Assembly (NCBI GenBank): GCA_002780005.1
Contig: PEWV01000075.1
Span: 14,133-78,132 of the forward strand
Source: Candidatus Aquitaenariimonas noxiae
GTDB taxonomy: Bacteria > Omnitrophota > Gorgyraeia > Aquitaenariimonadales > Aquitaenariimonadaceae
DNA length: 64,000 bases
Direction of reading: 5' to 3'
Made by a program: the position numbers and the translations under genes. This document shows, piece by piece, positions 8,599-58,439 of the stretch. Positions within the stretch are counted from its first letter, which is position 1. Each line of letters opens with the position of its first letter. The notes under the pieces were generated by a model. That model saw only the letters and a program-made list of their open reading frames with translations, did not search any database and was not told the DNA's origin.

Positions 8599-8698
8599 TT
8601 TTATATTTTAATATTTTTAGCCTTTCTCACATTATAAAACTTTTCCCCGATATTAACAACGACTTTATTATATTTTCCGTTTAAGACCCGGACCGTTT

Positions 8699-10390
8699 TT
8701 AATTATCGTTCCAGGAATTCTCTTCTACAGAAACACCGTTTAAACCCTGTGGTATGGAAGAATCCACTGCTGAAGCATCATAAGTTATTGTCGCAGGGCC
8801 TAGTGAATCGGAGAAGAATTGGCGTACCAAAAGAGAGCCGGTAACGCTCGAGTTTCCGTTAACTTGGGCCAGCCCCTCGGTTGAGTTTCCATATTGATAA
8901 ACTATGCCTGAAACAGACGCGCCGGAATTTATCTGCAGAGATTGGTTATTTCTGCCCCTGCTTATGACAGCCCCGCTTACCGTTGTGCCGGAATCTTTTA
9001 TCTGCAGCAGATTATTAGAAGCCGAACTTGCATAGTCTACATATAAGGTGCTACTTGTTACATAAGCCCCATCTTGAACGATAAGGCACCGCTGCGCGAT
9101 GATCACGGCACCGTTAATATTGGTAGTTGAATTTCTTATCGTTAACGCATCGCCTGTCCCGCTAGGGCTCCTGGAATATAAATAGCAGTTTCGATTTAAA
9201 GTTACGGATGTGTCAGCTTGACTTGAGTTTAAATTCATATCGCCACCCGACAGGAAATAAATATTCCCTCCGGACGGCGCAGCCGTAAAGGTCCCGGCAT
9301 CGGCGTTCGCATTGTGAATCAATATCTTTCCTTTGACAGAAGTAACTATATAGCCGTAACCGCCCACGTTAACCGTCCCATTTGTGTCAAAATCAGTATG
9401 TATATAGATCTCAAAATTATTTGAATTAATAGCTGCTGTTCCTTCCAGATTAAATGTGCGGGAGCAATTTATTCGATAATCGCGCGCGGTTATCTGGGCA
9501 TTCCCAGTCATATTGAAATCAGTGCTGGTGTTAATAGTGAAATTTGAGGCGTTCGAATCTATGCTCGAGCCGTTTTGAAGGTTAAAAGCCCTGCAGTTTA
9601 CAGTAAAATTGGTACCGGTGATGGAAAACCCATTGGTGTTTATATCTCTTCGGCTTATATTCTGGTTTGTCCAGTTTACGTTGCCGGTCAAGGTAAGATC
9701 GCCTGCGCCGGGGCTGGTATTAATATTTGCATCGTTAATGCGGGTGTTCCAACCCGACATCAAATTATCATAGTAAGCCGTATCCAGAGAGGGCATATCC
9801 GGGAATGACGGCTGAATTGCTTCGGTTGAATATGTACCTGTGCCGTCTATTGTCTCGCCTGAGCCATAATACACTTTACCTCCCGTTACAGAACACGGGG
9901 TATTTATACGCGAGCTGCCCACAGACCAATAGTCGCCTACTATTTGTGTCCCGCTGCCTGTTGTCGAAAAATCGAGTCTCGCGCTCGGACCGTCAAGCTG
10001 CCAAAACACGGCAAACAGGCATGCCTTCGGAGTCTTTTTGGCTGTCGAGCTTATCTGTCTTTGGATGATCTGGCCTGAATAACCCGATACTTTTCCGGTC
10101 ACAGTAAACGAAACATTGTTTGCGCTGGCGCTATTAATTGTTATGTCAAAAGTTCCTGAGCCAAGCTCTATCCCGGTTTGATCGGTTTCATCGGTCCAAT
10201 CGCTGTCGCTGGCTAATTTCTCCAAATACCAATCCCTTCCGCCTTCTACTGCAGCAAATGCCTCGACTCCTCCTGAAAAACCCAGACTGCTTTCCGTGCC
10301 TTGAGTCAAAAGGGAAAAGGCAACTAACGCCACGAGTGAACACGCCAATACCAAAAAAATCATCAGAATTAACGCTACACCTTTTTCCAT
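8699..10390 (-). CDS. PilX-like / pilus tip-associated large secreted protein (Asn/Thr/Ser/Gly-rich, beta-helix-like repeats)
   Basis: N-terminus MEKGVALILMIFLVLACSLVALVAF matches the PilX_N-type hydrophobic segment. 563 aa rich in N/T/S/G. Translationally coupled to the upstream minor pilin (1-nt gap). Confidence 0.5.
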   Translation of the reverse strand: MEKGVALILMIFLVLACSLVALVAFSLLTQGTESSLGFSGGVEAFAAVEGGRDWYLEKLASDSDWTDETDQTGIELGSGTFDITINSASANNVSFTVTGKVSGYSGQIIQRQISSTAKKTPKACLFAVFWQLDGPSARLDFSTTGSGTQIVGDYWSVGSSRINTPCSVTGGKVYYGSGETIDGTGTYSTEAIQPSFPDMPSLDTAYYDNLMSGWNTRINDANINTSPGAGDLTLTGNVNWTNQNISRRDINTNGFSITGTNFTVNCRAFNLQNGSSIDSNASNFTINTSTDFNMTGNAQITARDYRINCSRTFNLEGTAAINSNNFEIYIHTDFDTNGTVNVGGYGYIVTSVKGKILIHNANADAGTFTAAPSGGNIYFLSGGDMNLNSSQADTSVTLNRNCYLYSRSPSGTGDALTIRNSTTNINGAVIIAQRCLIVQDGAYVTSSTLYVDYASSASNNLLQIKDSGTTVSGAVISRGRNNQSLQINSGASVSGIVYQYGNSTEGLAQVNGNSSVTGSLLVRQFFSDSLGPATITYDASAVDSSIPQGLNGVSVEENSWNDN

Positions 10391-10391
10391 A

Positions 10392-10991
10392 TTAAGAAAA
10401 TAGGTCCGAGACCTGTAGAATATTACGAAGCCTTATTTTTGTCCTGAAATAAACGGTATTGTTATTGGATGAGAGCGACATGTCAATTTGCACAAATCTT
10501 ATGTCAGTCGCCTGCGGGCTTACTAAAGGAGCTGGGATAACGTCTCCGTTCCCATCCAGGTATGAGAAGGTAAACGAGGAAACGTTTGAAACAAGCGTGT
10601 CGGCTGTGCCGTTATAGCTTCTTTCCAGATTTGATCCGTTAAGCTGGAATTGCATAGTATTATTATCTATGTCGACGAAACTATAGGAGGTAGCATTAGC
10701 TGTGATTACGCTTGTATTGTTTTTCAGACGACGTATCTCACGGCTCATTCTTCTAAAAGCTGTCTCGGCGCTTTGTGATAAATCTTTCCTATGTATGCTG
10801 TACTTATATGAGTCAACCAATTTAATAGCAACAGGGCCGCCGATACCTACTAATAGGCCTATGATAACTATGACCATTATTAGCTCGATCAGAGTAAACC
10901 CCGTTAGAGATGGGTTGTGTTCACCCATCGGACCTTTAATAGTGCTACGTTTAATGAAAAATTTACTTTTATCAATAATTATCTTGACCAT
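10392..10991 (-). CDS. minor (pseudo)pilin with prepilin-type N-terminal cleavage/methylation domain; 30-aa leader
   Basis: Leader ...EHNPSLTG then FTLIELIMVIVIIGLLVG (G-1, F+1, E+5). Confidence 0.8.
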   Translation of the reverse strand: MVKIIIDKSKFFIKRSTIKGPMGEHNPSLTGFTLIELIMVIVIIGLLVGIGGPVAIKLVDSYKYSIHRKDLSQSAETAFRRMSREIRRLKNNTSVITANATSYSFVDIDNNTMQFQLNGSNLERSYNGTADTLVSNVSSFTFSYLDGNGDVIPAPLVSPQATDIRFVQIDMSLSSNNNTVYFRTKIRLRNILQVSDLFS

Positions 10992-11091
10992 TTTTAGTAA
11001 GATATATTTTTATCTCTAACGGGGTAAACCCGTGCTTAGGTTTTAGGTGATAGGTTATAGGTGATAGGTGTTTTAACATTTTTAAATAGAA

Positions 11092-11568
11092 TCAGTTATT
11101 GGTTGCCAGCGTTACTGCCTCAACACTGGGAAATCCCGGGCGCGAAACTGTTATTTGGATTCTTTTATAGTTTGTAGAAGGGCTAGCGCTCAGCGTATTT
11201 AAATTTCCGCTGTCTACATAATAATAACTCACTTGATGTGAATAATCGCTGAAATTACCCGTGTACTCGGTCGGGCCCTCATTAACAACGTTAGAAAATC
11301 TCAAGTTCGTCACGCGTTCCAATTCGCTTTCTAATAGCGAAGACACTGCTATAAAATGTTCCGGTAAAAATGCGTTTTGCACTGATTCTATAATTACAAC
11401 CGAGACGGGAATTAATATAACAGAAGCAATAACGATCGTCATTATTAATTCTATAAGAGTAAGCCCTTTATCGGAGTTTCGATATTTCCCGCTTTTGCGG
11501 GATCCCGCACATGTATGTCCAAGGCTTGGTATAGGCGGGACGTATTTCGAATTTCGTATTTTTCTCAC
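11092..11568 (-). CDS. minor (pseudo)pilin; 34-aa leader
   Basis: ...NSDKG then LTLIELIMTIVIASVILIP. ATG overlaps the stop of the upstream pilin (ATGA), supporting this start. Confidence 0.75.
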   Translation of the reverse strand: MRKIRNSKYVPPIPSLGHTCAGSRKSGKYRNSDKGLTLIELIMTIVIASVILIPVSVVIIESVQNAFLPEHFIAVSSLLESELERVTNLRFSNVVNEGPTEYTGNFSDYSHQVSYYYVDSGNLNTLSASPSTNYKRIQITVSRPGFPSVEAVTLATNN

Positions 11569-12119
11569 TGTATATACACCCTGCCTGTTCCTCTCTCAAC
11601 CATTATATTTTTAGGACCTGTGATCGTTACGTTAGCCGGATTATTAAGCGCGGTACCACTGCCAGAACCGGCATCATAGCTATAGGGGTCCCCCCATTTG
11701 TCAAATGCCAGATCCTTATTGTTGTCATTAAAATAGACCTCTGTTATGTCAATGCCTTGGAATTCGCTCTCGTTAAACTGAACGGTGTAGTTATTTTTCG
11801 TTAATGGGTTGATCACTAAACTCCAATTTCCCGGGGTATCTTCTATGTAGACTGAGTAGCGATGTTGTGACGTGCTAAATGAGATCCGAGTCCTTTTTTG
11901 AATACTTACGGCTAGCGATTGCGCGTATCTTATGTCCGATTGAATTTTTTGCGCTGCCATATCCGAGCGCATAGCCGGCATATCGACCATCCTTGCGCTT
12001 GCCAGAACAGCCAAAATGCCGATAATGGCCATTACCATTATAAGCTCGAGAAGGGTAAACCCCGTTAGAAAGGCCCTACCCTTTTCATCAGGAATTGAAA
12101 TTCTGTTTGTTTCATCCAT
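11565..12119 (-). CDS. minor (pseudo)pilin (GspH/FimT-like); 19-aa leader
   Basis: ...GRAFLTG then FTLLELIMVMAIIGILA. Confidence 0.8.
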   Translation of the reverse strand: MDETNRISIPDEKGRAFLTGFTLLELIMVMAIIGILAVLASARMVDMPAMRSDMAAQKIQSDIRYAQSLAVSIQKRTRISFSTSQHRYSVYIEDTPGNWSLVINPLTKNNYTVQFNESEFQGIDITEVYFNDNNKDLAFDKWGDPYSYDAGSGSGTALNNPANVTITGPKNIMVERGTGRVYIQ

Positions 12120-12234
12120 ACTATCTATAAATCGCGCACCCCATTAAAAAGCATCTTTGTAATGAGATAAAGCTTTCTAACGGGGTAAACCCTCGTTTCA
12201 TATATAACATTTTCGGATGCTTCCCAATTACAGA

Positions 12235-12608
12235 TTACTGCTCGACAAATGAACCGTCGACATTGGAGTACGCATAAATGCCTCCGGCCGGACCAACGTA
12301 TTGGCTTGAGGCGTTTTTGGTCCACTCGCTTGTTATGCCGCCCTGGGAAAGAACCACAGTGAAAAACGCATTCGCCTTTGAGGCTGTCGAACTAGCAGCG
12401 GCAGCATCTAAATTGGCCGGCCATGCCTTATTTTGAGCGTAATAGGTATGGATACCTGCCCTGACGCCTCCTACCACACCCTTCTCGGCGGCTGATTTGG
12501 CATCGTTTTGCAGATCATAATATTTTGGGATCGCAACTGCTGCCAAAATACCCAATATAACAATAACCATGACTAATTCTATGAGCGTAAAACCCTTTTT
12601 CCGAACAT
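12235..12608 (-). CDS. pilA: major type IVa pilin (PilA-like), apparent +1 frameshift between SD-led ATG and the pilin frame
   Basis: GGAGGTAAAAATG at 12608 is 1 nt out of frame with the pilin body (KKGFTLIELVMVIVILGILAAVAIP...). One extra A in the A5 run (T5 at 12596-12600 on the plus strand) would give the classic leader MFGKKG/FTLIEL. ORF-track ORF 12235..12570 starts only at the internal Met. Confidence 0.6.
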
Positions 12609-12734
12609 TTTTACCTCCGTCAGGATTAATTTCAGCTCTTCATATTCTCTTTTTCTTTAACCGATCACCCCCCTAGCAAACCGTAATAAAAGTTATTTTC
12701 GGATCCAAAAATCGTTAAACCGCGTTTCGCCCTC

Positions 12735-12760
12735 ATATATTATCACTATATATTATCACT
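12735..12760. repeat. perfect tandem 13-mer ATATATTATCACT x2 spanning the pilC stop codon, about 125 nt upstream of the pilA ATG
   Basis: 12735-12747 and 12748-12760 are identical. Confidence 0.8.
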
Positions 12761-13967
12761 TAAACAATGACATCATATTCCACATCGGCAAAAATATGCC
12801 CAATGCCATGAATAGCACGCCGCAACCTAAGGCAAGTATGAGCACGGGTTCGATCAATGTCGTAAGATTTTTTACGGTATGGTCCGTTTGTGAGTCATAG
12901 TAATCAGATACGTATAAAAGCAACTCATCTACTTTACCCGTCGCCTCTCCGGAAGCGACCATTTGCACTACGATCGGAGGGAACATGCCGCACATTTTCA
13001 TGGGCTCAGACATACCCTTACCTTCATTCACGCTTACTTTTATAATATTAATGGCGCGGGCGATAACAACATTCCCTATGCTTCTTGAGACGAGATCCAA
13101 GATCTGCAATATGGGCACGCCGCTTTTTGTGAGGGTCCCTGTGATACGCGCAAACCTGGACATCGTGATCTTTGTAAAAAGCGGCCCGAAAACCGGAATT
13201 TTTAATTTCAGGCCGTCCCACCAGAACCTGCCGATCTCGGTTTTTACAAACCTGCTGAAACCGAATACAAAAGCTCCTATAACAGTAAGAATAAGCCACC
13301 AAAAATTGATAATAGCATAATGTATGCCTATAAGAACGCGCGTCGGCAAAGGCAGCTCTACATTAAACTGGCTGAATAAGCTCGCAAACCTGGGTATTAT
13401 AAACGTGGTCAAGATCATGAACGCTACTAAGAGCGCCGTTACTACCATAAGAGGATAGCGCGTAGCGGTCATTATCTTTGCCCTTGTCTCTTCTTCGTGC
13501 TCGCCAAGTATAGCGAGCCTGCTCAAGATCTCATCAAGCGTCCCGCTGACCTCTCCGGCCTTCACCATGCTGACATACAGACCATTAAAAACTCTCGGGT
13601 GCTTAGCCAAGGCATCCGAGAAATGCGAACCGGCTTCGATATCTTTTATTATACTCTCGATGGTTGCCTTTAAGATATCGCTACTACTCTGATCCCTGAT
13701 GGCGCTAAGGCTTGTCAAGAGCGGAAGGCCTGATTTCTGCAAAGTCACCAACTGCATCGTGAACATATTCAAGTCAGAAAATCTGACCCTTTTAAATCTC
13801 ATAATAAATTTATCTAAGCCGATCTCTCTTATTTTTTCTTTGATCGAAATAGGCACATAATTCATTTGCTTCAATTTGGAGCCGGCTAATTCTGCGTTAT
13901 CGGCTTCTATAATACCGATCGCCTGTTTTCCGAATTTGTCCCTGGCCTTATACTCAAAAATAGCCAT
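12756..13967 (-). CDS. pilC: type IV pilus platform protein PilC (GspF family)
   Basis: 403 aa; duplicated GspF domains; three TM segments. Confidence 0.9.
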   Translation of the reverse strand: MAIFEYKARDKFGKQAIGIIEADNAELAGSKLKQMNYVPISIKEKIREIGLDKFIMRFKRVRFSDLNMFTMQLVTLQKSGLPLLTSLSAIRDQSSSDILKATIESIIKDIEAGSHFSDALAKHPRVFNGLYVSMVKAGEVSGTLDEILSRLAILGEHEEETRAKIMTATRYPLMVVTALLVAFMILTTFIIPRFASLFSQFNVELPLPTRVLIGIHYAIINFWWLILTVIGAFVFGFSRFVKTEIGRFWWDGLKLKIPVFGPLFTKITMSRFARITGTLTKSGVPILQILDLVSRSIGNVVIARAINIIKVSVNEGKGMSEPMKMCGMFPPIVVQMVASGEATGKVDELLLYVSDYYDSQTDHTVKNLTTLIEPVLILALGCGVLFMALGIFLPMWNMMSLFK

Positions 13968-13968
13968 C

Positions 13969-15654
13969 TTATTCCTCTTCTGTCTTAGTTACCCTTAAAA
14001 CCTCTTCTACGGTCGTAATCCCTTCTTTTGCCTTTGATATGCCGTCGGAAAATAATGTGCCCATGCCTTTAGAGATCGCTATTTTTCTTATTTCGTCAGC
14101 CGAGGCCTTGGCGACTATAAGCTTTCTTATATCTTCGTCCATGATCAATAATTCAAATATGCCTATCCTGCCTGCAAAGCCTGTCCCCCTGCAAGACGCG
14201 CAGCCCTTTCCTCTATAAAATATCATTTTACCTTTAAGGCCCAGGTCTTTCAGCACTTCATCTGAAGGCGTGTGGTTTTCTTTGCATTTGGGACAAACGG
14301 CTCTTACAAGCCTTTGGCCCAGGATCCCCATAACAGAACTTGAAATCAAGAACGGTTCCACGCCCATATCTAAGAGCCTGGCAAGTGCGCTTGGGGCGTC
14401 GTTTGTATGTAGGGTAGAAAACACGAGATGCCCCGTAAGCGCCGCCTGGATCGAGATATCCGCAGTCTCCTTATCCCTTATTTCGCCGACCATAACAACA
14501 TCCGGGTCCTGCCTCAATATACTTCTAAGCCCTGCGGCGAACGTTAATCCGGCCTTTGGATTAACCTGCGTTTGCCTTATAAGAGGCAGCTCGTATTCTA
14601 CCGGGTCCTCAATAGTAATTATATTTTTTTCCATCGAATTGATCGTTGATAACGCGCCGTATAGAGTTGTCGTCTTGCCGCTGCCGGTAGGGCCTGTAAC
14701 CAATATTATCCCGTTTGGTTGATGAATAAGCTTCTCGAACTTTTTTAGGTCGCCTTTTGAGAGGCCAAGTTCGGGCAATCCCAATAGCGCCGTTGATTTA
14801 TCCAACAATCTCATAACGACATTTTCGCCGTGTATCGTCGGAAAACTTGAAACTCTTATATCGATATCGCGGTCTTCTTTCTTTAATTTGATCCGCCCGT
14901 CCTGCGGTTTTCTCTGTTCCGCTATATCCATCTTGGCTAAAATTTTTATCCTGGAAATAACCGCGCTCTGCAGGTGTTTCGGTATAACGTTTATCTCGTG
15001 CAAAATGCCGTCTATGCGATACCGTATCCTCACAGCCGTATCATCCGGTTCAATATGTATATCGCTAGCCCTATCCTTTACTGCCTGGGTGATCATCAAA
15101 TTAACCAATTTTATTATAGGCGGCTCGCCGGCCACCTCGCTTATATCTTTCAAGCCGCCCTTTGCCTTCGTTTCAAATTTCGCCTTATCGATATCTTTTA
15201 TTAATTCATCCACAGTTCCTATTACCCCGTAGTATGAATCCAAAACTTTCTGGATCCCCCGCTCACTCACCAATACGGTATCTACGGAATCTATTTTCGC
15301 CTTTAATCGTATTTCGTCAATCGCGATAATATCCTGAGGGTCAACCATTGCTAATGTAAGAGCATTGCCGATCTTAAATAACGGGACGGCCTTATGTTTT
15401 TTTGCCAGGGTTTCCGGAACAAGCTTTATCACCTCTTGATCTATTATGTAATCGGTCAGATCTATATAAGGAATGTCTAAGGTATCGGCAATGGTGCTCG
15501 CTATCTCTTCCTCGGTAATATAGCCTAATTTCTCGAGCGCCTTTTCCAGGGGAAGGCCCGTCTTTTTCACTTCCTCTCTGGCGCGTTCGATCTGGTCCCT
15601 AGTAATCAGGCCTTTTTTTATAAGTAATTCCATAGCTTCTTGGGTTTTTGCCAT
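13969..15654 (-). CDS. pilB: type IV pilus assembly ATPase PilB (GspE family) with GSPII_E_N/MshEN-like N-terminal domain
   Basis: Walker A GPTGSGKTTT; Asp/His boxes; C-terminal tetracysteine (CPKCK...CASCRGTG). N-terminus LLIKKGLITRDQIERAREE / LEKLGYITEEEIASTIADTL resembles MshEN repeats. Confidence 0.9.
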   Translation of the reverse strand: MAKTQEAMELLIKKGLITRDQIERAREEVKKTGLPLEKALEKLGYITEEEIASTIADTLDIPYIDLTDYIIDQEVIKLVPETLAKKHKAVPLFKIGNALTLAMVDPQDIIAIDEIRLKAKIDSVDTVLVSERGIQKVLDSYYGVIGTVDELIKDIDKAKFETKAKGGLKDISEVAGEPPIIKLVNLMITQAVKDRASDIHIEPDDTAVRIRYRIDGILHEINVIPKHLQSAVISRIKILAKMDIAEQRKPQDGRIKLKKEDRDIDIRVSSFPTIHGENVVMRLLDKSTALLGLPELGLSKGDLKKFEKLIHQPNGIILVTGPTGSGKTTTLYGALSTINSMEKNIITIEDPVEYELPLIRQTQVNPKAGLTFAAGLRSILRQDPDVVMVGEIRDKETADISIQAALTGHLVFSTLHTNDAPSALARLLDMGVEPFLISSSVMGILGQRLVRAVCPKCKENHTPSDEVLKDLGLKGKMIFYRGKGCASCRGTGFAGRIGIFELLIMDEDIRKLIVAKASADEIRKIAISKGMGTLFSDGISKAKEGITTVEEVLRVTKTEEE

Positions 15655-38567: not shown

Positions 38568-40304
38568 TTATCTGAAAAATATTCTGTCGACGTCCTCTTT
38601 ACTGACGGCCTTATGTAATCGTTTGGATATTGTCTTATCGGGCCTCTTGTGATTCAACAGTTCGCACTTTATACTTGATAATTTAGAGGCCGCTACGCTG
38701 AAACTGCGCAGCCCAACGCTCAGCAGTAAAGGATAAAATTCTTCGAAACTGGCAACTTCGCCGCACAGGCAAACCTCTTTCTTGTGGGTTTTTCCCGATT
38801 TAACGACAAGTTCTATAAGTTTCACTAGAGAAGAATGTAAGATGTGATATCTTTTTTCTATTAGCGGATTGCCGCGGGAAGCGGCAAGCGTGTATTGCAA
38901 AAGGTCATTTGAGCCTATATTGACAAAATCAACATTCTTTATAAGCGAATCCAATAAGAGGGCCGCTGACGGAGTTTCCACCATAATGCCTTCTTTAATA
39001 CTTTTCTTGAATTTTTTACCCTCTTTTTTAAGGCTGGTTTTCGCGGACACGATCAATTTCTTGAATAAGTCTATATCGCTCATATCCGATATCATAGGAT
39101 ACAGGACTCTTAGGTCTCCAAAAACAGCTGCCCTAAGGATCGCCTTGACTTGCACCAGATATATGTCATAAAAGAAATCCAGCGCCCTTACACCCCTTAT
39201 GCCCAGATCAGGATTTTCCTGCGGCGGAAGATTTAAGTAAGGCGGCAACTTGTCAGGACTAATGTCCAAAAGTCTTACAGTAACGGGGAGGCCTTTGGCT
39301 TCTTCCAATATATGTTTATACATATTAAATTGCTCTTCTTCTGACGGAGGTGTTTCTTTGTTTAAAAAAAGAAATTCTGTCCTAAGCAAGCCTACCCCAT
39401 CGTATTGAAGTCCTCTCAATAGCTCTATTTCACCCGGCGTGCTAATATTGGCTTTTAACTTAATTCTAAGGCCTTTTTGAGTCTTGGAAGGCGCGTCTTT
39501 TACTGAAACACACACGGCTTTCCTTTTTTGAATATCCGATATCTTATTCGAATAGCGATCAAGCGTGGCCTGATCCGGAGAAACAAATACTTTACCGTCA
39601 AATCCGTCAACTATAATCTTATCACCGCATTTAATATTGACCTCTACGCTAACGCCAAAAACTACAGGCACATTGTAACCTCTTGCCAGAATAGTCGCAT
39701 GAGTAGTGAAGCCGCCTTCTTCGGTTACAAATGATAAAACATGTTCCTTAGGGATATTCAGCACCATTGAAGTGGTTAATCTTTTAGACACCACGATAAC
39801 AGGCTGCCTCTCGCCCACCGGGCATTCGAAATGACCTGCGAGATTGCCAAAAGATACCAAAAGCCTATTTCTAACATCTCTTACATCATGGGATAACTCT
39901 GAAAAATGAAGCTCACTTTTTTCATATGTTTTTACATATTCTTCAAAGGCATCACTTACCGCGTGTTCGGCATTAACCAATTTGGTGTTTATTAGATCCT
40001 TCATTCTTTCAAGTAGTACAGGGTCATCTAATATTAAGACGTGAGCGCTAAAGATTTCGCTCGCGCGTTTATCGAATAATTTTTCCGCAGCACGAGCCAT
40101 GCTTCCCATTGTTTCTTTGGCCTTCTTAATAGCTTCTTCCAGGCGAAGGATCTCCCCCTTAGTCCTATCTTTTTCTATTACATAGTGGGGGATCTCTTCT
40201 TCGACCTTTTCGGCATACAAACAGGCCGTTCCTATCACTACGCCGGAAGATGCCACCACACCTTTTAATATCTTCATAAAAATACGCTCCTTAGATTCAA
40301 GCAA
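38568..40304 (-). CDS. ptsI: phosphoenolpyruvate-protein phosphotransferase (PTS enzyme I-like); no HPr or EII genes in window
   Basis: EIN region, phosphohistidine domain (GGFTTHATILARGYNVPVV), C-terminal PEP-binding barrel (GLLRTEFLF ... MVETPSAA ... NDLLQYTLA). Confidence 0.8.
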   Translation of the reverse strand: MLESKERIFMKILKGVVASSGVVIGTACLYAEKVEEEIPHYVIEKDRTKGEILRLEEAIKKAKETMGSMARAAEKLFDKRASEIFSAHVLILDDPVLLERMKDLINTKLVNAEHAVSDAFEEYVKTYEKSELHFSELSHDVRDVRNRLLVSFGNLAGHFECPVGERQPVIVVSKRLTTSMVLNIPKEHVLSFVTEEGGFTTHATILARGYNVPVVFGVSVEVNIKCGDKIIVDGFDGKVFVSPDQATLDRYSNKISDIQKRKAVCVSVKDAPSKTQKGLRIKLKANISTPGEIELLRGLQYDGVGLLRTEFLFLNKETPPSEEEQFNMYKHILEEAKGLPVTVRLLDISPDKLPPYLNLPPQENPDLGIRGVRALDFFYDIYLVQVKAILRAAVFGDLRVLYPMISDMSDIDLFKKLIVSAKTSLKKEGKKFKKSIKEGIMVETPSAALLLDSLIKNVDFVNIGSNDLLQYTLAASRGNPLIEKRYHILHSSLVKLIELVVKSGKTHKKEVCLCGEVASFEEFYPLLLSVGLRSFSVAASKLSSIKCELLNHKRPDKTISKRLHKAVSKEDVDRIFFR

Positions 40305-45088: not shown

Positions 45089-46629
45089 TTACTCCCACTC
45101 TATCGTAGAAGGCGGCTTGGATGAAATATCATAAACAACCCTGTTGATGCCTTTGACTTCATTTATAATACGGCTCGATATGGTTTCAAGCAACTCGTAG
45201 GGAAGCTTGGCCCAGTGAGCGGTCATTGCGTCTTCGCTCGTCACAGCCCTTACCGCAACCACATTCTCGTAAGTCCTCTCATCACCCATAACCCCTACTG
45301 TTTTTATAGGTAACAATACGCAGAATGACTGCCATAATTTTCTATAAAGGCCACTTCGTTTTATTTCATCTATCAATATCCAGTCGGCTTCCCGTAAAAG
45401 GTCAAGCCTATTCTTAGTGATCTTGTCTATTACGCGAACCGCAAGGCCCGGCCCCGGGAAAGGCTGTCTATAAATAGCTTCTTCCGGCATACCTAGTTCT
45501 TTTCCGAGTAGCCTTACCTCATCTTTAAATAAATCCTTAAGAGGCTCTATCAGTTCAAAATCCATGCGGGAAGGAAGTCCTCCTACATTGTGATGTGTCT
45601 TAATGGTCGCCGAAGGCCCGCCTATCGGGGATTTTGATTCTATTACATCAGGGTATAACGTGCCCTGGGCTAAAAATTTTATTTTCCCCATTTTTTTTGC
45701 TTCTTTCTCAAAAATTCTTATAAATAACTTGCCTATGATCTTGCGTTTTTTCTCAGGGTCCGTGACCCCTTTTAAACCGTTCAAAAAAACTTTACTCGCG
45801 TCGATTACTTTCAGGTTTATACGAAAGTTTTTTCTGAATCTTTTCTCGACAAGCTCGGACTCATGTTTGCGCAACAGCCCGTTATCGATAAAGATGGCGA
45901 CAAGATTTTTACCTATAGCCTTATGAAGAAGCACTGCCAACACCGAAGAATCCACGCCGCCGCTTAACCCGCATAGAACTTTTTCACCGTTTATCCGGTT
46001 TCTTAATTCTTTAATCGTGTTTTGCGCAAAAGAATACATATCCCACGATGGCTTGCATCCTGCTATATTAAATAGAAAATTTTTCAATATGATCTTCCCT
46101 TTTGGCGTGTGAACGACCTCGGGATGGAACTGAACCCCGAAAAAGTTTTTTTCAGGATGTTCCATAGCGGCGACCGGAGAATTTGAGGTGGAGCCTATTA
46201 CCCTAAAGCCCTTTGGCAATTTTGTTATCCTGTCTCCGTGGCTCATCCAGATCGTCTCTTTCGAAAGTAAATCTTTAAACAATGTCTTTTTTGATCTAAT
46301 GCTAAGGGTCGCCTTTCCATATTCCCGTGTCTTAGCCTTAGCAACATTCCCTTCCAATAATTTGGCCATAAGCTGCGCGCCGTAGCATATGCCGAGAACG
46401 GGTATGCCCATATTAAAAATATCCTTATCACATACGGGAGATTTTGCTGCGGTAACGCTGGCAGGGCCGCCTGACAAAATAACCGCTTTTGGTTTGCGAG
46501 CCGAAAGTTCATCCGCCCCTATATTGTAAGGCACTATTCCAGAGTAAACCTTATGCTCGCGTATCCTGCGGGTAATAAGATGGGTGTATTGAGAGCCAAA
46601 ATCTAAAATCGCTATCCAGTCTCTATCCA
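45089..46629 (-). CDS. guaA: GMP synthase (glutamine-hydrolysing)
   Basis: GATase domain (ILDFGSQYT, catalytic GICYG) plus ATP-PPase SGGVDSSV and C-terminal dimerisation domain. Start revised to GTG at 46629 (GGAGGA SD). The ORF-track N-terminal extension overlaps carB. Confidence 0.88.
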
Positions 46630-48287
46630 CGGGACTCGTCCTCCATTTCGTAAGTAGAGTAAAAATACGGCGTATAAGCTTCGAACTCGGCGCCGCAGGT
46701 ATCAACCAGCTTATATGTTGTTTTTATGCCAAATTTGTTGCGCAACTTTCGAATATTATCTTCTTTTGTGCTGACTAAATTTGCGATCTGCTTATCGCTA
46801 AAACCAAACTGTTTTGCTTCGAAAAGCAAGCTCTTAAACATATTGGTATTATATTTACTTTTTGCTTTTTTGATCTTCTTCTCAAGGTCCACTATCTCTT
46901 CAATGTTATGAAGGAACCATCTGTCTATTTTTGTATGCTCGTAGATTTCATCTATATTCATCTTATTTTTTATGGCATATTTTATATAAAAAATCCTCTC
47001 CGCATTCGGGGTTTTTAATCTATCTATAAGTTGTTCGCGTGATACATCAAATTTTAAATCTTCCAAACCGGACACGCCTATCTCAAGTGACCTTAACCCC
47101 TTTTGCAGCGACTCTTTAAAAGTCCTTCCGATAGACATAGCCTCGCCTACGGATTTCATAGATATCGTGAGCGTTGAATCCGCCTGGGAGAATTTTTCAA
47201 ACGTAAAACGAGGAATTTTAACGACACAATAATCGATAGTAGGCTCAAAACATGCCGGCGTTTCCTTCGTAATATCATTCGGGATCTCATCAAGCGTATA
47301 CCCCACGGCCAGTTTCGCTGCTATCTTTGCAATAGGAAACCCCGTTGCCTTGGAAGCCAGGGCCGAACTCCTAGAGACCCTGGGATTCATTTCTATGACT
47401 ACCATTCTACCACTATCGGGGTGAACGGCAAACTGAATATTTGAACCTCCGGTCTCTACGCCGATCTCTCTAATGCAGGCTATCGCGGCATCGCGCATCT
47501 TTTGATATTCCCTATCCGTGAGGGTCTGCACCGGGGCAACTGTAATTGAATCGCCGGTATGGACCCCCATTGGATCAAAGTTTTCTATTGAACATATGAT
47601 AACAACATTATCTCTTTTATCTCTCATCACTTCAAGCTCGAATTCTTTCCAGCCGATAACCGATTCCTCTATTAATATCTCGCTTATCATGCTCGACTCA
47701 AGGCCTCGTTGGGCAATTTTCTTAAACTCCTCTATATTATATGCCACGCCGCCGCCTGTACCGCCCAGTGTGAAGCTCGGACGCACAATTACGGGGAAAC
47801 TGATCCTGCTTATTATCTCGTATGCTTCTTTTAACGTATGGGCTTCTCCGCTTTGGGGCAGATCAAGTCCGATCTTCTGCATTGCTTCTTTAAAAAGCTG
47901 CCTATTTTCGGCCTTTTTAATAGCTTTAATGTTTGCGCCTATAACCTCTACGCCATATTTATCAAAAATTCCGTTTTCGGCCACTTTCACGGTGACATTC
48001 AAGGCCGTCTGGCCTCCGAGCGTAGGCAAAATAGCGTCCGGTTTTTCTTTTTCTATTATTCTTTCAACTATTTCCGGAGTAATAGGCTCAATATATGTTT
48101 TATCCGCCATAACCGGGTCCGTCATTATGGTAGCCGGGTTACTATTCAATAAAACCACTTCAAATCCTTCCGACCTTAATACCTTGCACGCCTGGGTGCC
48201 GGAATAGTCAAATTCGCACGCCTGGCCTATTATGATAGGACCGGAACCGATTATGAGAATCTTTTTTATGTCTGTACGTTTTGGCAT
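46623..48287 (-). CDS. carB: carbamoyl-phosphate synthase large subunit, N-terminal half only (split carB)
   Basis: 554 aa starting [24 protein letters not shown]. Ends ...[20 protein letters not shown], just before the second synthetase domain would begin. guaA follows immediately. Confidence 0.85.
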
Positions 48288-53319: not shown

Positions 53320-54015
53320 TTATTTACCTTTCAGCCATTTCAGTGTAGATTTAAAAATTAAGGAGCCGTGATCGGACCCAAGTAGTTTCTCAGCGCTTCT
53401 TTCCGGATGAGGCATCATCCCTAATACATTACCCTGTTTATTTATAATACCGGCAACATTGCCTATGGCTCCATTTGGGTTAAATCTATCGCCAACCTCT
53501 CCTTGTTCGCTGCAGTAACGAAAAACAATCTGCTTATTTTCTGTAAGGTTTTTAAGCCCTTTTGTATCGATATAGTAGTTACCCTCATTATGGGCTATTG
53601 GGATCTTTAAAATTTGATCCCTTTTGCCCAAATTTGTAAATGGCGTAGCATTGTTTTCTAACTTTATATGTACATGCTTACAAATAAAATGAAGGTTTTT
53701 GTTTCTTAGCATCGCGCCGGGTAGCAGGCCGGCTTCCAGTAATATTTGAAAACCGTTACAAATTCCAATAACCAACCCTCCTCTATGGGCAAATCTAGTC
53801 ACCGATTTCATCACAGGAGAAAATCGAGCCACCGCGCCAGTTCTCAGATAGTCGCCATAACTGAACCCCCCCGGTAATACCAAACAATCATATGCATCCA
53901 CTTTGGTATTTTTGTGCCAGATATATTCCGCAGGCTGCTTTAAAATATCTCTGATCGCATAGAAGCAATCTTGTTCGCAATTAGAACCTGGAAAAACTAT
54001 AACACCGAATTTCAT
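53320..54015 (-). CDS. purQ: phosphoribosylformylglycinamidine synthase glutaminase subunit PurQ
   Basis: GICNGFQ catalytic Cys; HPER. Confidence 0.9.
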
Positions 54016-54263
54016 TTATCACCTTTCATCTTAACGTTATAATCTTCTGTTATTGGATTAGCTAATAATTTCCTGCACATATTATCGATTTTCTTTTTAG
54101 CCTTCTCTTTATTTTGGCAATCTATTTTAATAGTAATAAATTTACCGATTCGGACTTCGTCTAAACCTTTATACCCCATTGACTCTAATGCGTGTTTAAT
54201 GGTTAAACCTTGCGGATCAACTATTTTTTTCTTCAAAGTAATGTAAATTTCTGACTTTAACAT
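54012..54263 (-). CDS. purS: phosphoribosylformylglycinamidine synthase subunit PurS
   Basis: 83 aa; overlaps the purQ start. Confidence 0.85.
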
Positions 54264-54356: not shown

Positions 54357-55931
54357 CTAACCTGAAAAACATACAATTTTTTGCGATACTACATCCGATA
54401 CTATTTTTAAGTCCCTGCCTTCTGCATCGTAGACGCTGACAACGTCGTTATATGCGGCTGCCTTAGGCATTAGTTTCATAAATAAATTTTTAGACTTTGA
54501 GAACCATTTATTATTCAATGCGACTTTTTCTTTTTGAGGAAATAACGCAACATAGAATATGTTCGTCTCCACAAGGTCCTGGAAAAAATGCGTTCCGAAG
54601 GATAATTCAGGCATGAGATTTCCGCCGGAAAAAGCGACTTCCACAAGCACGGCTATATTGTTTATCTCGGCAAACTTGACCGGTACGCCCAGGGACGGGG
54701 TTGTCGTGCCCCATCTCCCCGGCCCCATAAGAAGTGTTGGTAATTTTTCTCTGTCTTCTATATTTTTATTCAGCGTTCCTACTATGCGCGCGACTTCATA
54801 CTGGTCGGACAATACAAGCTTACCGTACTTCTCCGGATCGACACATATAATTCTTTTGATTTCCTGAGATATATTGCCGCCTAAAAAATATCCGTGCGAT
54901 TCAAAAAGTATCTTTTCCCTGCTTATGCTGCCAGGTATATCAACCTTACAGCCGATCCTTCTTGTCTGCAGGGGGCGGCATTGCAGCAGGTTTATCTTGA
55001 AGGCGTTGTTCTTTGTAAAGTTTACGGTAAATTCTATTTCAATAGGATAGCGGTAATTCTTTTCGATCGTCACAAGTATTTTCCTGAAGGAATCTGCCAA
55101 CGTATTATAGTCGAATACCTTGTCGAGTGTCAATATCCAATATTCCTTATCTCCCGCGCCTCGATCGTTCATCATGCGCATGGATTCATAATCTTTTACC
55201 GCCACGCGGCTTGTATCTCTGTAAGTCTTCTCGCTTACAAGTCTTTCGAACGGAACAGTTTGGAAAACATTTTCTTTTGTATTTATGAGATCTACTTCGT
55301 GCTGTGAGAATTTCCTTAAATCATCCTTCTCCGCGTACGGCCTTCTTAAAGGATCGTCAAGCGCAACCATTCTCGGGTAATCACCCTCTACGCGATTGAC
55401 CGCCCTTGTGCCTAACCCGAACACCAGTCTAAGCATACCTGCCTTCGGGTCCATATTTTCATTCCAGACATATGTATTATGGGACACGCCGACGCCGGCA
55501 AGGTCCGGAAAAAAATAATTTTTATGATGGGCCCCGGAAACGCGCTGCACCAGGAGCGCCATCTGTTCATCTAATTTATCCAAACCCCTCTGTTTTCTGT
55601 ATACGAGGGCATCTTCGCTCATCGTGCTTGCATAAATTCTTTTTACGGCCTCTGCAAACTGTATATATCTCTGCTCCGGCGTGCCCTGATTTGCCAAAAA
55701 TATGCTTTCGTATTTACCGGCAAATGCGTTCCCGAAGCCATCCTCCAGAAGAGAGCTCGAGCGTATTATAATAGGAGATGAGCCGAAATACTCCACGATC
55801 TGCTGAAAGCTTTCCATTATATCATCGGAAAATACGCCGTAAAGCATCTTTTCTTTTAAGATCTTTGCGATATTAAAATATCCATCCTCGGTCTTCTGCT
55901 GCATACGCAGTTTCCACCATCGATTTTGCAC
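54357..55931 (-). CDS. PEP/pyruvate-binding (PPDK_N, ATP-grasp-like) domain protein, C-terminal portion; likely continuous with the upstream ORF via frameshift
   Basis: IIIRSSSLLEDGFGNAFAGKYES matches the VRSSATAED..SFAGQ signature of the PEP synthase/PPDK N-terminal domain. GTG start overlaps the upstream ORF by 59 nt in another frame. Confidence 0.6.
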   Translation of the reverse strand: MQNRWWKLRMQQKTEDGYFNIAKILKEKMLYGVFSDDIMESFQQIVEYFGSSPIIIRSSSLLEDGFGNAFAGKYESIFLANQGTPEQRYIQFAEAVKRIYASTMSEDALVYRKQRGLDKLDEQMALLVQRVSGAHHKNYFFPDLAGVGVSHNTYVWNENMDPKAGMLRLVFGLGTRAVNRVEGDYPRMVALDDPLRRPYAEKDDLRKFSQHEVDLINTKENVFQTVPFERLVSEKTYRDTSRVAVKDYESMRMMNDRGAGDKEYWILTLDKVFDYNTLADSFRKILVTIEKNYRYPIEIEFTVNFTKNNAFKINLLQCRPLQTRRIGCKVDIPGSISREKILFESHGYFLGGNISQEIKRIICVDPEKYGKLVLSDQYEVARIVGTLNKNIEDREKLPTLLMGPGRWGTTTPSLGVPVKFAEINNIAVLVEVAFSGGNLMPELSFGTHFFQDLVETNIFYVALFPQKEKVALNNKWFSKSKNLFMKLMPKAAAYNDVVSVYDAEGRDLKIVSDVVSQKIVCFSG

Positions 55932-56967
55932 TATATAAGAATAAAATATATCCGAACCTATCTATATAGAACGAGTCGTGCAGTTCCGAGAGTTTTTTCC
56001 AATCAAGAGATTTATCTTTCGATAGTATTTTTCTGGCCAAAAGCATGCCTACGCTTTTCCCTCCGATAAAACCCGTTCCTATCAGCCTGTATTTTATATC
56101 TACGAGCTCCTCAAGCGAAAAATTTTGTATCGCCAAGGATAAGATCTTCTTATTCTTGGTCACCATTATGCTCGATAGCTTCTTTATCATATCTTTTATC
56201 TTCTCTTTTTTCGCAGGACTTTTTACAAGCTCCTCCGCATCAATGAATAAGCGGTCCCAGTAATCGTGATTTCTCTTGGCGTTCTCCGCTCCTTTTTCGC
56301 GAATATAAGAGAGTATTTTTACGGCGTTAACGCTGTCGGTAATGGGTATAAACCTTTCGTTCTTCTTTTGGTGCGGAAGGAACATTGTCGGCGAATACCG
56401 GTTCCATACTTTAAGCGGGTGTATATACAAGCTACCCTCGCAATGGTACACATCCATCAAGAGCTGAGTAGTTTCGCGTATGCTGGCTATGGACTTGAAG
56501 GAATGGTTATTGCGCAATATAGAAAAATATGTAATAGTCTTAAGTTCGTAAAGGTACGGGCATGTAACCATAAAAAAGTTTCCTGTCATAAGATCGGTAG
56601 CCCACGCCGAAAGGAGTTCTGACAGGCAATCAAACACATAATACGCCCCTTCGCCTTCCTGGGTAATAATATTATTTACCCTTGTGGTAAAATATTCGAA
56701 TCCGGCATTGGCATTAAGTTCGTATCGTTTTATCTTTTTTGAGGGCTTAAGCAGTTCCTTGTGTGATGCAAACCGCATGTATATAACTTTCTTATTCTCG
56801 CCAAGCGCCTGACGCACAAACGGCGTTACAAGGTCAATATAATCTTTTATATCGTCTATCTGCCAGACTACATTGTCCCCGGTCCTCAAGCCCGTGATCA
56901 CGCTATCCAAACCTTTTATGCCTGTACTTATCATATCAATAACCCTTCGCCCTTCGATTCCGCACAA
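55873..56967 (-). CDS. N-terminal portion: degenerate RecA/KaiC-like domain followed by the start of the PPDK_N domain (GGKSVGMLLARKIL)
   Basis: TGIKGLDSVITGLRTGDNVVWQ resembles KaiC/RadA N-terminus but lacks Walker A. C-terminal FIGGKSVGMLLARKI matches the LVGGKNASLGEM start of PPDK_N, which continues in the downstream ORF. Confidence 0.5.
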   Translation of the reverse strand: MCGIEGRRVIDMISTGIKGLDSVITGLRTGDNVVWQIDDIKDYIDLVTPFVRQALGENKKVIYMRFASHKELLKPSKKIKRYELNANAGFEYFTTRVNNIITQEGEGAYYVFDCLSELLSAWATDLMTGNFFMVTCPYLYELKTITYFSILRNNHSFKSIASIRETTQLLMDVYHCEGSLYIHPLKVWNRYSPTMFLPHQKKNERFIPITDSVNAVKILSYIREKGAENAKRNHDYWDRLFIDAEELVKSPAKKEKIKDMIKKLSSIMVTKNKKILSLAIQNFSLEELVDIKYRLIGTGFIGGKSVGMLLARKILSKDKSLDWKKLSELHDSFYIDRFGYILFLYSAKSMVETAYAAEDRGWIF

Positions 56968-56972
56968 TAGTT

Positions 56973-58439
56973 TTACATAGACGGCAAATTGCTTTCGCCT
57001 ATCAGATATTTATCAATACAATAGGCCGAACGCCTGCCTTCGGATATGGCCCAAACTATTAGCGATTGTCCTCTTCTGGCGTCACCTGCCGAAAATATAT
57101 TCTTAATAGAAGTTATATATTTTTCATCTGTTTTGATGTTGCCGCGATTGTCTAATTCCAGACCCAGATCATTCAGAAGACCTCCGCGCTCGGGATGCAT
57201 GAATCCTATCGCGAGGATCACCAGATCAGCCTCTATTTCAAACTCTGTGCCCGGGATCTCTTTCATGACCTGACAGTTTTTCCCATTTTCTTTAGAAAAT
57301 TCAATTTTAACGCACGATACTTTTTTTACGCAGCCTTTTTCTCCGATAAATCGTTTTGTCAACACCGCCCAATGGCGCTCGCCGCCCTCTTCGTGGCTGG
57401 TGGAAGTTTTCAAAATAAAAGGATACCTTGGCCAGGGATCGCTAGCGGTCCTGCATTCGGAAGGCTTAGGAAGCACTTCTATCTGCACAACGCAGCTCGC
57501 CCCCTGCCTGTGCGCAGTCCCGACGCAATCCGCCCCGGTATCTCCGCCTCCTATCACAAGAACTTTCTTACCCTTGGCGTCTATGGGTTCGCCCCCAGAA
57601 CGCTTTTCACCAGACACTCTGCAATTGGACTGCATTAAATAATCCATGGCAAAATATATTCCCTTTAGTTCCCTGCCTTCAATAGTCAAATCCCTGGGAA
57701 TGCGTGAACCTATGGCGATACAAATAGCATCAAACTCCTCTTTTAATTTTGAAATCGGGTAATCAGGCCCCACATTAAGGCCTGTTTTAAATTTAATTCC
57801 TTCTTTTTCTAAAATCTTGACCCTTCTCTCGATTATCTTTTTTTCCAGTTTAAAATCAGGTATACCGTAACGTAAAATACCTCCGACCTTATCATCTTTT
57901 TCAAACACCGTTACCGAATGGCCTGCCTTATTAAGCTGGCCTGCGCACGATAATCCTGCAGGGCCGGAACCTATGACAGCTATTTTCTTTCCCGTGCGGA
58001 TTTTTGGAGCCTTTGGCTTGATAAGACTTTCCTTAAAGGCATATTCTATTATAGACAGCTCGTTTTCTCTTATAGTTACAGGATCATCTGTTAAGCCCAG
58101 CACGCAGGCGTATTCACAAAGCGCTGGGCATAATCTGCCAGTTATCTCAGGCAGGTTATTTGTAGCTTGAAGGAGGTCAAGCGCGGCTTCCCATTTACCT
58201 TTAAACATATAATCGTTCCATTCAGGAATGTAGTTCCCTACCGGGCAACCCCAATGGCAAAACGGCGTCGCGCAGTCCATGCAGCGCGAAGCTTGTTCCT
58301 GCGACTGCTTCTCAGGGCACATTTTTGAAACATCCTTAAAGTCTTTGACGCGCTCGCAGACTTCTCTGTAAAGAGTTTTTTCTCTTCCCAATTTTAAGAA
58401 TCCTCGCGGATCACCCATCTGATGCCTCCACCAAATCAA
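56973..58439 (-). CDS. gltD: glutamate synthase (NADPH) small subunit
   Basis: N-terminal Fe-S Cys cluster; FAD/NAD(P) Rossmann motifs (IAVIGSGPAGL, VLVIGGGDTG). Confidence 0.85.
   Translation of the reverse strand: MIWWRHQMGDPRGFLKLGREKTLYREVCERVKDFKDVSKMCPEKQSQEQASRCMDCATPFCHWGCPVGNYIPEWNDYMFKGKWEAALDLLQATNNLPEITGRLCPALCEYACVLGLTDDPVTIRENELSIIEYAFKESLIKPKAPKIRTGKKIAVIGSGPAGLSCAGQLNKAGHSVTVFEKDDKVGGILRYGIPDFKLEKKIIERRVKILEKEGIKFKTGLNVGPDYPISKLKEEFDAICIAIGSRIPRDLTIEGRELKGIYFAMDYLMQSNCRVSGEKRSGGEPIDAKGKKVLVIGGGDTGADCVGTAHRQGASCVVQIEVLPKPSECRTASDPWPRYPFILKTSTSHEEGGERHWAVLTKRFIGEKGCVKKVSCVKIEFSKENGKNCQVMKEIPGTEFEIEADLVILAIGFMHPERGGLLNDLGLELDNRGNIKTDEKYITSIKNIFSAGDARRGQSLIVWAISEGRRSAYCIDKYLIGESNLPSM

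Follow-up and report, generated by a model that had tools for sequence, protein, structure and literature searches.

One disrupted gene next to gltD in an Omnitrophota genome: an 857-residue protein with KaiC-like and PPDK_N ATP-grasp domains and a candidate role in glutamate synthesis

The locus discussed here raises the question of whether two overlapping open reading frames (ORFs) next to gltD are one gene or two, whether the break between them exists in the organism, and what their product does. They lie on the minus strand of a 64,000-nucleotide stretch of Candidatus Aquitaenariimonas noxiae DNA (Omnitrophota; GenBank assembly GCA_002780005.1, contig PEWV01000075.1, positions 14,133 to 78,132 of the forward strand), called the window throughout, and the split gene that they form is given the working name X. 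The best overall explanation, with a probability of roughly 0.6, is that of a single gene, present here as an allele with a 4-nt duplication, which encodes a three-domain phosphotransferase aimed at the glutamate-synthesis node.

The upstream ORF (55873-56967) has 364 codons from a TTG, or 353 from the ATG at 56934, and the downstream ORF (54357-55931) has 524 codons from a GTG; 59 nt (55873-55931) are common to both and are read in different frames. The upstream ORF contains GFIGGKSVGMLLARKI some 70 residues ahead of its stop, while the downstream ORF carries IIIRSSSLLEDGFGNAFAGKYES, the core of which is IIIRSSSLLED...FAGKYES. An earlier interpretation made from the letters alone, the sequence-only reading, had reported these positions, overlap and motifs correctly and had proposed one frameshifted gene with a PPDK_N domain; the ORF pair is a real observation and no chance pattern. 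The Pfam PPDK_N profile matches the downstream ORF alone at positions 66–313 (E 4.4e-42). When the frames are joined between ...HDSFYI and GSDIFY..., the match spans the junction and extends over positions 4–313 (E 2.5e-45). With 4 nt removed, X has 857 codons from the ATG at 56934 or 868 from the upstream TTG, and not the predicted size of about 870. All codons of the repaired frame, from 56934 to 54360, agree with P0001, a contiguous 857-residue protein from ENA contig L001, except for F615Y, which is the single-nucleotide polymorphism (SNP) at window position 55087; BLASTP gives 100% identity between P0001 and the spliced product.

What breaks the frame is a tandem duplication of 4 nt: on the gene strand, ATAG has become ATAGATAG. 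The window reads TTCTAT ATAG ATAG GTTCGG where L001 has a single ATAG, and the choice of the extra copy (55958-55961 or 55962-55965) is arbitrary. The duplication acts as a +1 shift directly after codon 324, at the upper edge of the interval 55875-55961 to which the break had been assigned, and parts the first 35 residues of PPDK_N from the rest of the domain. The alignment of the window with L001, 5,533 bases long (99.9% identity over 5.5 kb), contains two substitutions besides the 4-nt indel; the indel and one of the substitutions are within X. Near-identical contigs were located by exact-product look-ups with purL and gltD of the window, in ENA, Logan and JGI sources, where one record is labelled as a groundwater metagenome. 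The site is crossed by nine distinct contigs, each from a different assembly (L001, L085/L093, L086, L087, L088, L089, L092, L096 and L097). All nine have the single ATAG and an intact 857-residue ORF, and they differ from the window at 1–5 positions over 5–14 kb. SNPs among the near-identical contigs are found at 57879, 56736, 56526, 55087, 54767, 53338, 51441, 50877, 50763, 49317 and 60711, and the samples thus hold a number of coexisting haplotypes that are closely related. In species-representative genomes X is complete in 74 of 80 loci; in each of the 74 the frame runs without a break for 800 codons or more, and none has two separate genes in its place. Because PPDK_N crosses the junction, the repaired frame matches P0001 and the orthologues are contiguous, these data show that the two ORFs are one gene, the ancestral and functional state of which is a single 857-residue protein.

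The proposal of ORFs that are separate by design, as a two-subunit arrangement or through programmed +1 frameshifting, is practically untenable. The overlap and a Shine-Dalgarno-like GGTGGA 8 nt before the ATG at 55904 would fit it, but the break interrupts one folded domain, and the frameshift is conserved neither in the 74 orthologous loci nor in the nine strains that are otherwise nearly identical to the window. Single-frame orthologues everywhere make X one unit and exclude programmed frameshifting; the frameshift is an ordinary lesion or an artefact in one sequence. The main evidence on which of the two it is comes from JGI assemblies of three sibling samples (3300004212, 3300004238 and 3300004239), in which contigs break at the duplicated tetranucleotide. 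Two upstream contigs, L095 (Ga0066650_10002614, sample 3300004239) and L094 (Ga0066631_10002320, sample 3300004212), end at window position 55962 with ...TATATAG, while the downstream contigs L090/L100 (Ga0066650_10000060), L101 (Ga0066631_10000590) and L102 (Ga0066635_10021648, sample 3300004238) start at 55961 with ATAGGTTCGG. In a de Bruijn graph the shared upstream unitig ends where the alleles first differ and the downstream unitig starts where they are identical again. Unitigs that end at exact nucleotides thus imply that the reads hold a second allele of the form ATAG-insert-ATAG, and with an empty insert this allele is exactly the window sequence. The duplication is probably a real allele that coexists with the intact one in a groundwater Omnitrophota population.

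It is possible, although doubtful, that the frameshift arose in assembly or scaffolding, when two unitigs with a 4-nt ATAG overlap were joined end to end, and that the organism has an intact gene. The window junction is a blunt abutment of the upstream and downstream unitigs, exactly that of the end of L095 and the start of L090, whereas in the intact allele the unitigs overlap by 4 nt. Every contig reading through the site has one ATAG, and look-ups of the frameshifted products found the duplication read through in no assembly other than the window, which weighs against a real allele: the 353-residue upstream and 524-residue downstream products have no exact match on record, and the only contigs with a 515-residue product are those starting at the lesion site. 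Neither the junction nor the upstream flank had a match in a scanned metagenome contig collection, but the wild-type allele was likewise absent there; since that allele is known from the JGI samples, the collection does not include them. Several points speak against an artefact. The breaks at exact nucleotides in three samples need a duplicated-ATAG variant in the reads, and scaffolders normally insert Ns, of which there are none at the join. The window is identical to L095 over 6,457 nt but is separated by one SNP from the sampled part of L090 and by one from that of L094, so that it is not these contigs simply glued together, and no second broken gene was seen in the 64-kb window. An insertion, for instance an insertion sequence (IS) element, with a 4-bp ATAG target-site duplication, of which the window would be the excision footprint or a join, is very improbable. 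It would give the same unitig boundaries, as would any ATAG-insert-ATAG allele, but the insert is present in no contig, a short-insert scaffolder would have had to leave Ns in spanning an IS element, and a duplication with nothing between the copies is the simpler reading and agrees with the window sequence.

A real allele with the duplication would probably be null, since the G-x-G-x-x-G-G-K293 segment is severed from the rest of the ATP-grasp domain. It adds a 29-residue out-of-frame tail to the upstream part, and a 515-residue C-terminal fragment could be translated from the ATG at 55904. The frameshift itself matters for annotation only, where the ORF pair should be entered as a single disrupted gene; a real duplication would make the groundwater population a natural comparison of cells with and without X.

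Intact X is made of a P-loop-less KaiC/RecA-fold domain, a PPDK_N ATP-grasp domain and a conserved C-terminal domain (Table 1). The N-terminal domain has the RecA/KaiC core fold, with the strand G19-D-N-V-V-W followed by an acidic DDIxDY in the place of the P-loop, and keeps a Walker-B-like YVFD102CLS. Across 47 homologues the consensus at the P-loop place is GDNVVWQ-x-D-D-I-x-D-Y, and GK[ST] of the Walker A motif (GxxxxGK[ST]) is absent from the N-terminal ~70 residues in 46. No Pfam KaiC/ATPase model matches X or the 47 homologues, and only MEDS (E 0.05–0.18) and PAXNEB (E 0.03 in 5 of the 47) appear, below gathering scores. The KaiC/RecA-like domain of the sequence-only reading is thus upheld as a fold but not as a match to a KaiC profile. 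Among related proteins, archaeal FlaH, SSO2452 and PH0284 are KaiC-like single-domain members of the RecA superfamily, and Elp4/5/6 and MEDS domains are P-loop-less; the KaiC-like part of X differs from the KaiC relatives by the missing Walker A and by being a single domain fused to an ATP-grasp enzyme.

PPDK_N (PF01326) is present in all 47 homologues. In addition to the GGK segment, its invariant motifs are R390-S-S-S..E396-D397, G405-K406, [DE]631-x-E633-F-T and Q650-C-R652-P, which do not vary in the 47 sequences, down to 31% identity. We take these to be the counterparts of the ATP- and Mg-binding residues of pyruvate phosphate dikinase (PPDK), and on account of this correspondence the domain is probably catalytically competent.

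The C-terminal domain is as conserved as the rest of X and is modelled with a pLDDT of 92. Its invariant residues, H781 among them, belong to the motifs G-P-G738-R739-W-G-T-[TS]-[TS]-P..L-G748-V-P (54725-54696) and S777-x-G779-[TS]-H781-F-F-x-D-L-V-E, with H781 encoded at 54590-54588, and E764 is conserved as well. It has no Pfam match, no recognizable PF00391 or GG-x-T-S-H motif and no Foldseek match in the PDB. The phosphoryl-carrier domain of PPDK is among its best structural matches, with weak resemblance, and H781 is at the N-terminal end of a predicted helix preceded by a strand and a loop, presumably the place of the catalytic His in canonical swivel domains. The profile-profile comparison (hhalign) with PpsA swivel domains is non-significant (probability ~1.5%), and its weak alignment pairs GPGRWGT..LGVPV, rather than H781, with GGRTCH..LGIPAV, which leaves no His at the canonical position. 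A catalytic His could not be assigned at the level of a residue, and either H781 or the Thr/Ser cluster may be the phospho-acceptor. A divergent carrier-like domain is a candidate for the X C-terminus, and the earlier statement that a phosphohistidine swivel is absent was too strong, although the lack of a Pfam match stands. For reference, the PTS Enzyme I gene of the window (38568-40304, minus strand) has a canonical phosphohistidine mobile domain, GGFTTHATILARG.

Some sources name homologues of X "phosphoenolpyruvate synthase", and X does contain PPDK_N, but a genuine phosphoenolpyruvate (PEP) synthase or PPDK of carbon metabolism is hardly tenable as its identity. The PEP/pyruvate-binding TIM barrel (PF02896, PEP-utilizers_C) was found by Pfam neither in X nor in any of the 47 homologues, all of which also lack PEP-utilizers, and X ends ~200 residues past the ATP-grasp domain. 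NCBIfam models of PEP synthase and PPDK score X at 10–62 bits against cut-offs of 456–1063, and in a profile search of the PDB the structures of PEP synthase and of the rifampin phosphotransferase Rph match the ATP-grasp part only. The missing PEP/pyruvate-binding domain and the low NCBIfam scores rule out this identity, in agreement with the sequence-only reading. X shares with PEP synthase and PPDK a homologous PPDK_N domain with invariant GGK, RSS..ED, [DE]-x-E-F-T and Q-x-R motifs, after which comes a domain that has the phosphoryl carrier of PPDK among its best structural matches; unlike them it has an additional N-terminal KaiC-like domain and a gene context of nitrogen assimilation rather than gluconeogenesis.

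Another parallel is offered by the PPDK-superfamily kinases Rph and Cj1418, which combine the ATP-grasp domain with a domain for substrate binding and, at the C-terminus, a His carrier domain. X is far below the cut-offs of the NCBIfam Rph, PigC and PRK05849 models (for the Rph models NF041857 / NF000283, 28.7 bits against 999 and 17 bits against 1700), its candidate carrier domain is highly divergent, and its extra domain is an N-terminal KaiC-like pseudo-ATPase and not a central substrate-binding domain. Cj1418 is likened to X by its description in the literature and not by sequence; it is described as a PPDK-like L-glutamine kinase, which acts on glutamine (PMC10971088, PMC6429109).

The gene neighborhood connects X with nitrogen. 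In all 11 close Omnitrophota loci the order is gltB-gltD-X, with a gltD-X gap of 3–88 nt, while the downstream gene varies between purS, pyrG and carA. When three neighbors on each side of X were clustered at 84 loci, a core nitrogen-assimilation gene was found in the flanks of 52. The most common neighbor is gdhA, for an NADP-type glutamate dehydrogenase (GDH), which is within 3 kb at 29 loci and often 40–320 nt upstream on the same strand. Other neighbors are gltD (11 loci), amtB or amtB-glnK (nine), nrpR (seven) and a sigma-54 NtrC-type activator (six, in four of which it is 57–67 nt upstream on the same strand), and carAB and glnA also recur. The constant gltB-gltD, the variable downstream genes and the frequency of gdhA link X to the node of glutamate synthase (GOGAT) and GDH, and its conserved partner is this glutamate-synthesis and ammonium-assimilation node (gltBD, gdhA, amtB-glnK, nrpR) with its regulators. 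The earlier suggestion of a regulator of the glutamine-utilization operon is therefore supported, and sharpened, in its tie to nitrogen metabolism, but purS and the amidotransferases as such are not the conserved partners, and a regulator, although a reasonable guess, is no better supported than an enzyme.

It is hypothesized that the action of X resembles that of the smaller enzymes in the PEP-synthase/PPDK superfamily, of which rifampin phosphotransferase and glutamine kinase are examples. The ATP-grasp domain would use ATP to phosphorylate the C-terminal carrier, on H781 or on the Thr/Ser cluster in GPGRWGT[TS][TS]P, and the carrier domain would pass the phosphoryl group to a target, while the P-loop-less KaiC-like domain would serve in oligomerization or in binding of a ligand or a partner. 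The neighborhood, in at least 10 phyla, would place the target among GOGAT, GDH or the substrates glutamine, glutamate and 2-oxoglutarate, and since it points to the ammonium-assimilation node, X may tune or assist glutamate synthesis. A small-molecule target in this node and a protein target are equally plausible.

A rival that overlaps this explanation, and differs in the kind of target only, is that X is a small-molecule kinase of the Cj1418 or rifampin-phosphotransferase type, which acts on glutamine, glutamate, 2-oxoglutarate or a related compound and is an enzyme rather than a regulator. The invariant ATP-site motifs, the position of X within enzyme operons and its conservation at the level of a core enzyme would all fit, and there is the precedent of Cj1418 (PMC10971088). 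Yet X has no identifiable substrate-binding domain besides the P-loop-less KaiC-like one, the product of such a reaction is not known in central nitrogen metabolism, and together with the low Rph, PigC and PRK05849 scores this makes a strictly small-molecule kinase unlikely. Other observations count against the preferred reading of a phosphotransferase aimed at glutamate synthesis, in addition to the hhalign pairing described above. The neighborhood evidence is correlative, and 32 of the 84 loci have no nitrogen-assimilation neighbor; the neighbors of a doubled homologue, in Geobacter sp. OR-1, are an alpha-amylase-family gene and pgi; and full-text literature searches gave no experimental paper on the X family or its context. 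The X family is a good candidate for an unrecognized factor in glutamate synthesis. The fullest form of this proposal is put forward tentatively: X would be an unrecognized part of ammonium assimilation in many lineages, a phosphotransferase built from a KaiC fold, an ATP-grasp domain and an atypical carrier, which controls or assists glutamate synthesis by GOGAT or GDH, and the window would hold a natural null allele segregating in a groundwater population. How GDH and GOGAT are regulated in anaerobes is poorly understood, and a dedicated ATP-dependent partner would be a concrete and testable addition.

The family is large and strongly conserved, and combines a PPDK-type ATP-grasp domain, predicted to be catalytically intact, with a P-loop-less KaiC-like domain. 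A protein search gave hundreds of orthologues of 855–868 residues with 77–82% identity, mostly named Candidatus Omnitrophota, and the family comprises 835 clusters at 50% identity (E <= 1e-30). Within Omnitrophota the identity of X (77–82%) is comparable to that of GltB (77–81%). Databases name these proteins "PEP/pyruvate-binding domain-containing protein" or, wrongly, "phosphoenolpyruvate synthase", and no curated NCBIfam model covers the family. In its architecture the family is new within a known enzyme superfamily, and its association with ammonium assimilation is consistent and apparently unreported. The loci belong to Omnitrophota, Planctomycetota, Syntrophorhabdus, Syntrophales, Desulfobacterota, Bacillota, Actinomycetales, Spirochaetota, Gammaproteobacteria and a Methanoregula, and anaerobes predominate among the hosts of X (Omnitrophota, Planctomycetota, Syntrophales, Desulfobacterota, Bacillota, Spirochaetota and a methanogen). 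Marinobacter sp. ATCH36 (L083) is a cultured host with a gdhA-X pair, and in Ectothiorhodospira magna (L063) gdhA is 2.5 kb away on the opposite strand.

Several variants of the architecture were observed. The doubled Geobacter protein, P0056 (L004 8001-12419), has 1,472 residues arranged as linker, PPDK_N and C-domain followed by KaiC-like domain, linker, PPDK_N and C-domain, with RLSS in place of RSSS in the second copy, and several similar proteins of ~1,460–1,513 residues are among the matches. In Bryobacterales the X match is ~4.4 kb long and adjoins gdhA (L079 6190-10562, L081 4174-8590), a length that points to either a pair of paralogues in tandem or an enlarged gene. P0233 and P0239 (~1,060 residues) lack the KaiC-like domain and have a C-terminal Pol-beta-type nucleotidyltransferase after the conserved C-domain. 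This fold is the one used by GlnD and GlnE, a link that is suggestive only. In the Syntrophorhabdus-type loci L011, L015, L016 and L017 an NrpR-family repressor gene is convergent on X, with the tblastn match to NrpR overlapping the 3′ end of the X match by 18–49 nt and gdhA just beyond.

Table 1. Coordinates of X, its parts and its neighbors in the window
Feature	Position	Strand	Remarks
X, whole gene as it stands	54357..56934	-	ATG 56934, stop 54359-54357; cut by the 4-nt duplication
N-terminal KaiC/RecA-fold domain, aa 1-215	56290..56934	-	without Walker A
Helical linker, aa 216-289	56068..56289	-	model secondary structure; low conservation in alignment A1
PPDK_N, first 35 residues, aa 290-324	55963..56067	-	invariant G-x-G-x-x-G-G-K293; K293 56058-56056
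ATAG ATAG duplication	55958..55965	-	I324 (ATA) 55965-55963; G325 (GGT) resumes at 55958-55956, +1 frame
Out-of-frame tail, 29 codons, DRFGYILFLYSAKSMVETAYAAEDRGWIF	55873..55962	-	premature TAA 55875-55873
PPDK_N, remainder, aa 325-658	54957..55958	-	Pfam PF01326, E 4e-42 to 3e-45
C-terminal domain, aa 659-857, candidate divergent swivel/carrier	54360..54956	-	conserved motifs
gltD, small subunit of glutamate synthase	56973..58439	-	directly upstream, 38 nt from stop to ATG of X
purS	54012..54263	-	downstream neighbor in this lineage; pyrG or carA there in other Omnitrophota
Minus-strand string	42204-63962	-	glnA gltB gltD X purS purQ purL pyrG carA carB' guaA hisH hisF, class-II amidotransferase (purF/asnB-like)

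The string in which X is embedded consists of ~22 kb of consecutive same-strand genes, nearly all of which encode enzymes that produce or use glutamine. In related Omnitrophota the glnA-gltBD-X core is kept, while the amidotransferase genes that follow are shuffled. The carB of the string (46623-48287, minus strand) encodes 554 residues that correspond to the N-terminal half only (CPSase_L_D1/D2/D3) and is followed directly by guaA, whereas carB of the related Omnitrophota L002 and L003 encodes 1,074–1,082 residues; the second half was not found in the 64-kb window. A second frameshift was considered and rejected, as the ORF at 45089-46705 is guaA, and the half-size carB is no assembly error, because it is identical in all near-identical contigs.

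Elsewhere in the window, a type IV pilus/type II secretion system (T2SS) cluster (6844-15654) contains a PilM-PilN fusion, a T2SSE ATPase and T2SSF, as well as an ORF of 563 residues with no Pfam match (8699-10390, minus strand). Beyond this cluster are two sensor kinases, one of them with a GGDEF domain, a flavodiiron protein and two YHS-domain proteins.

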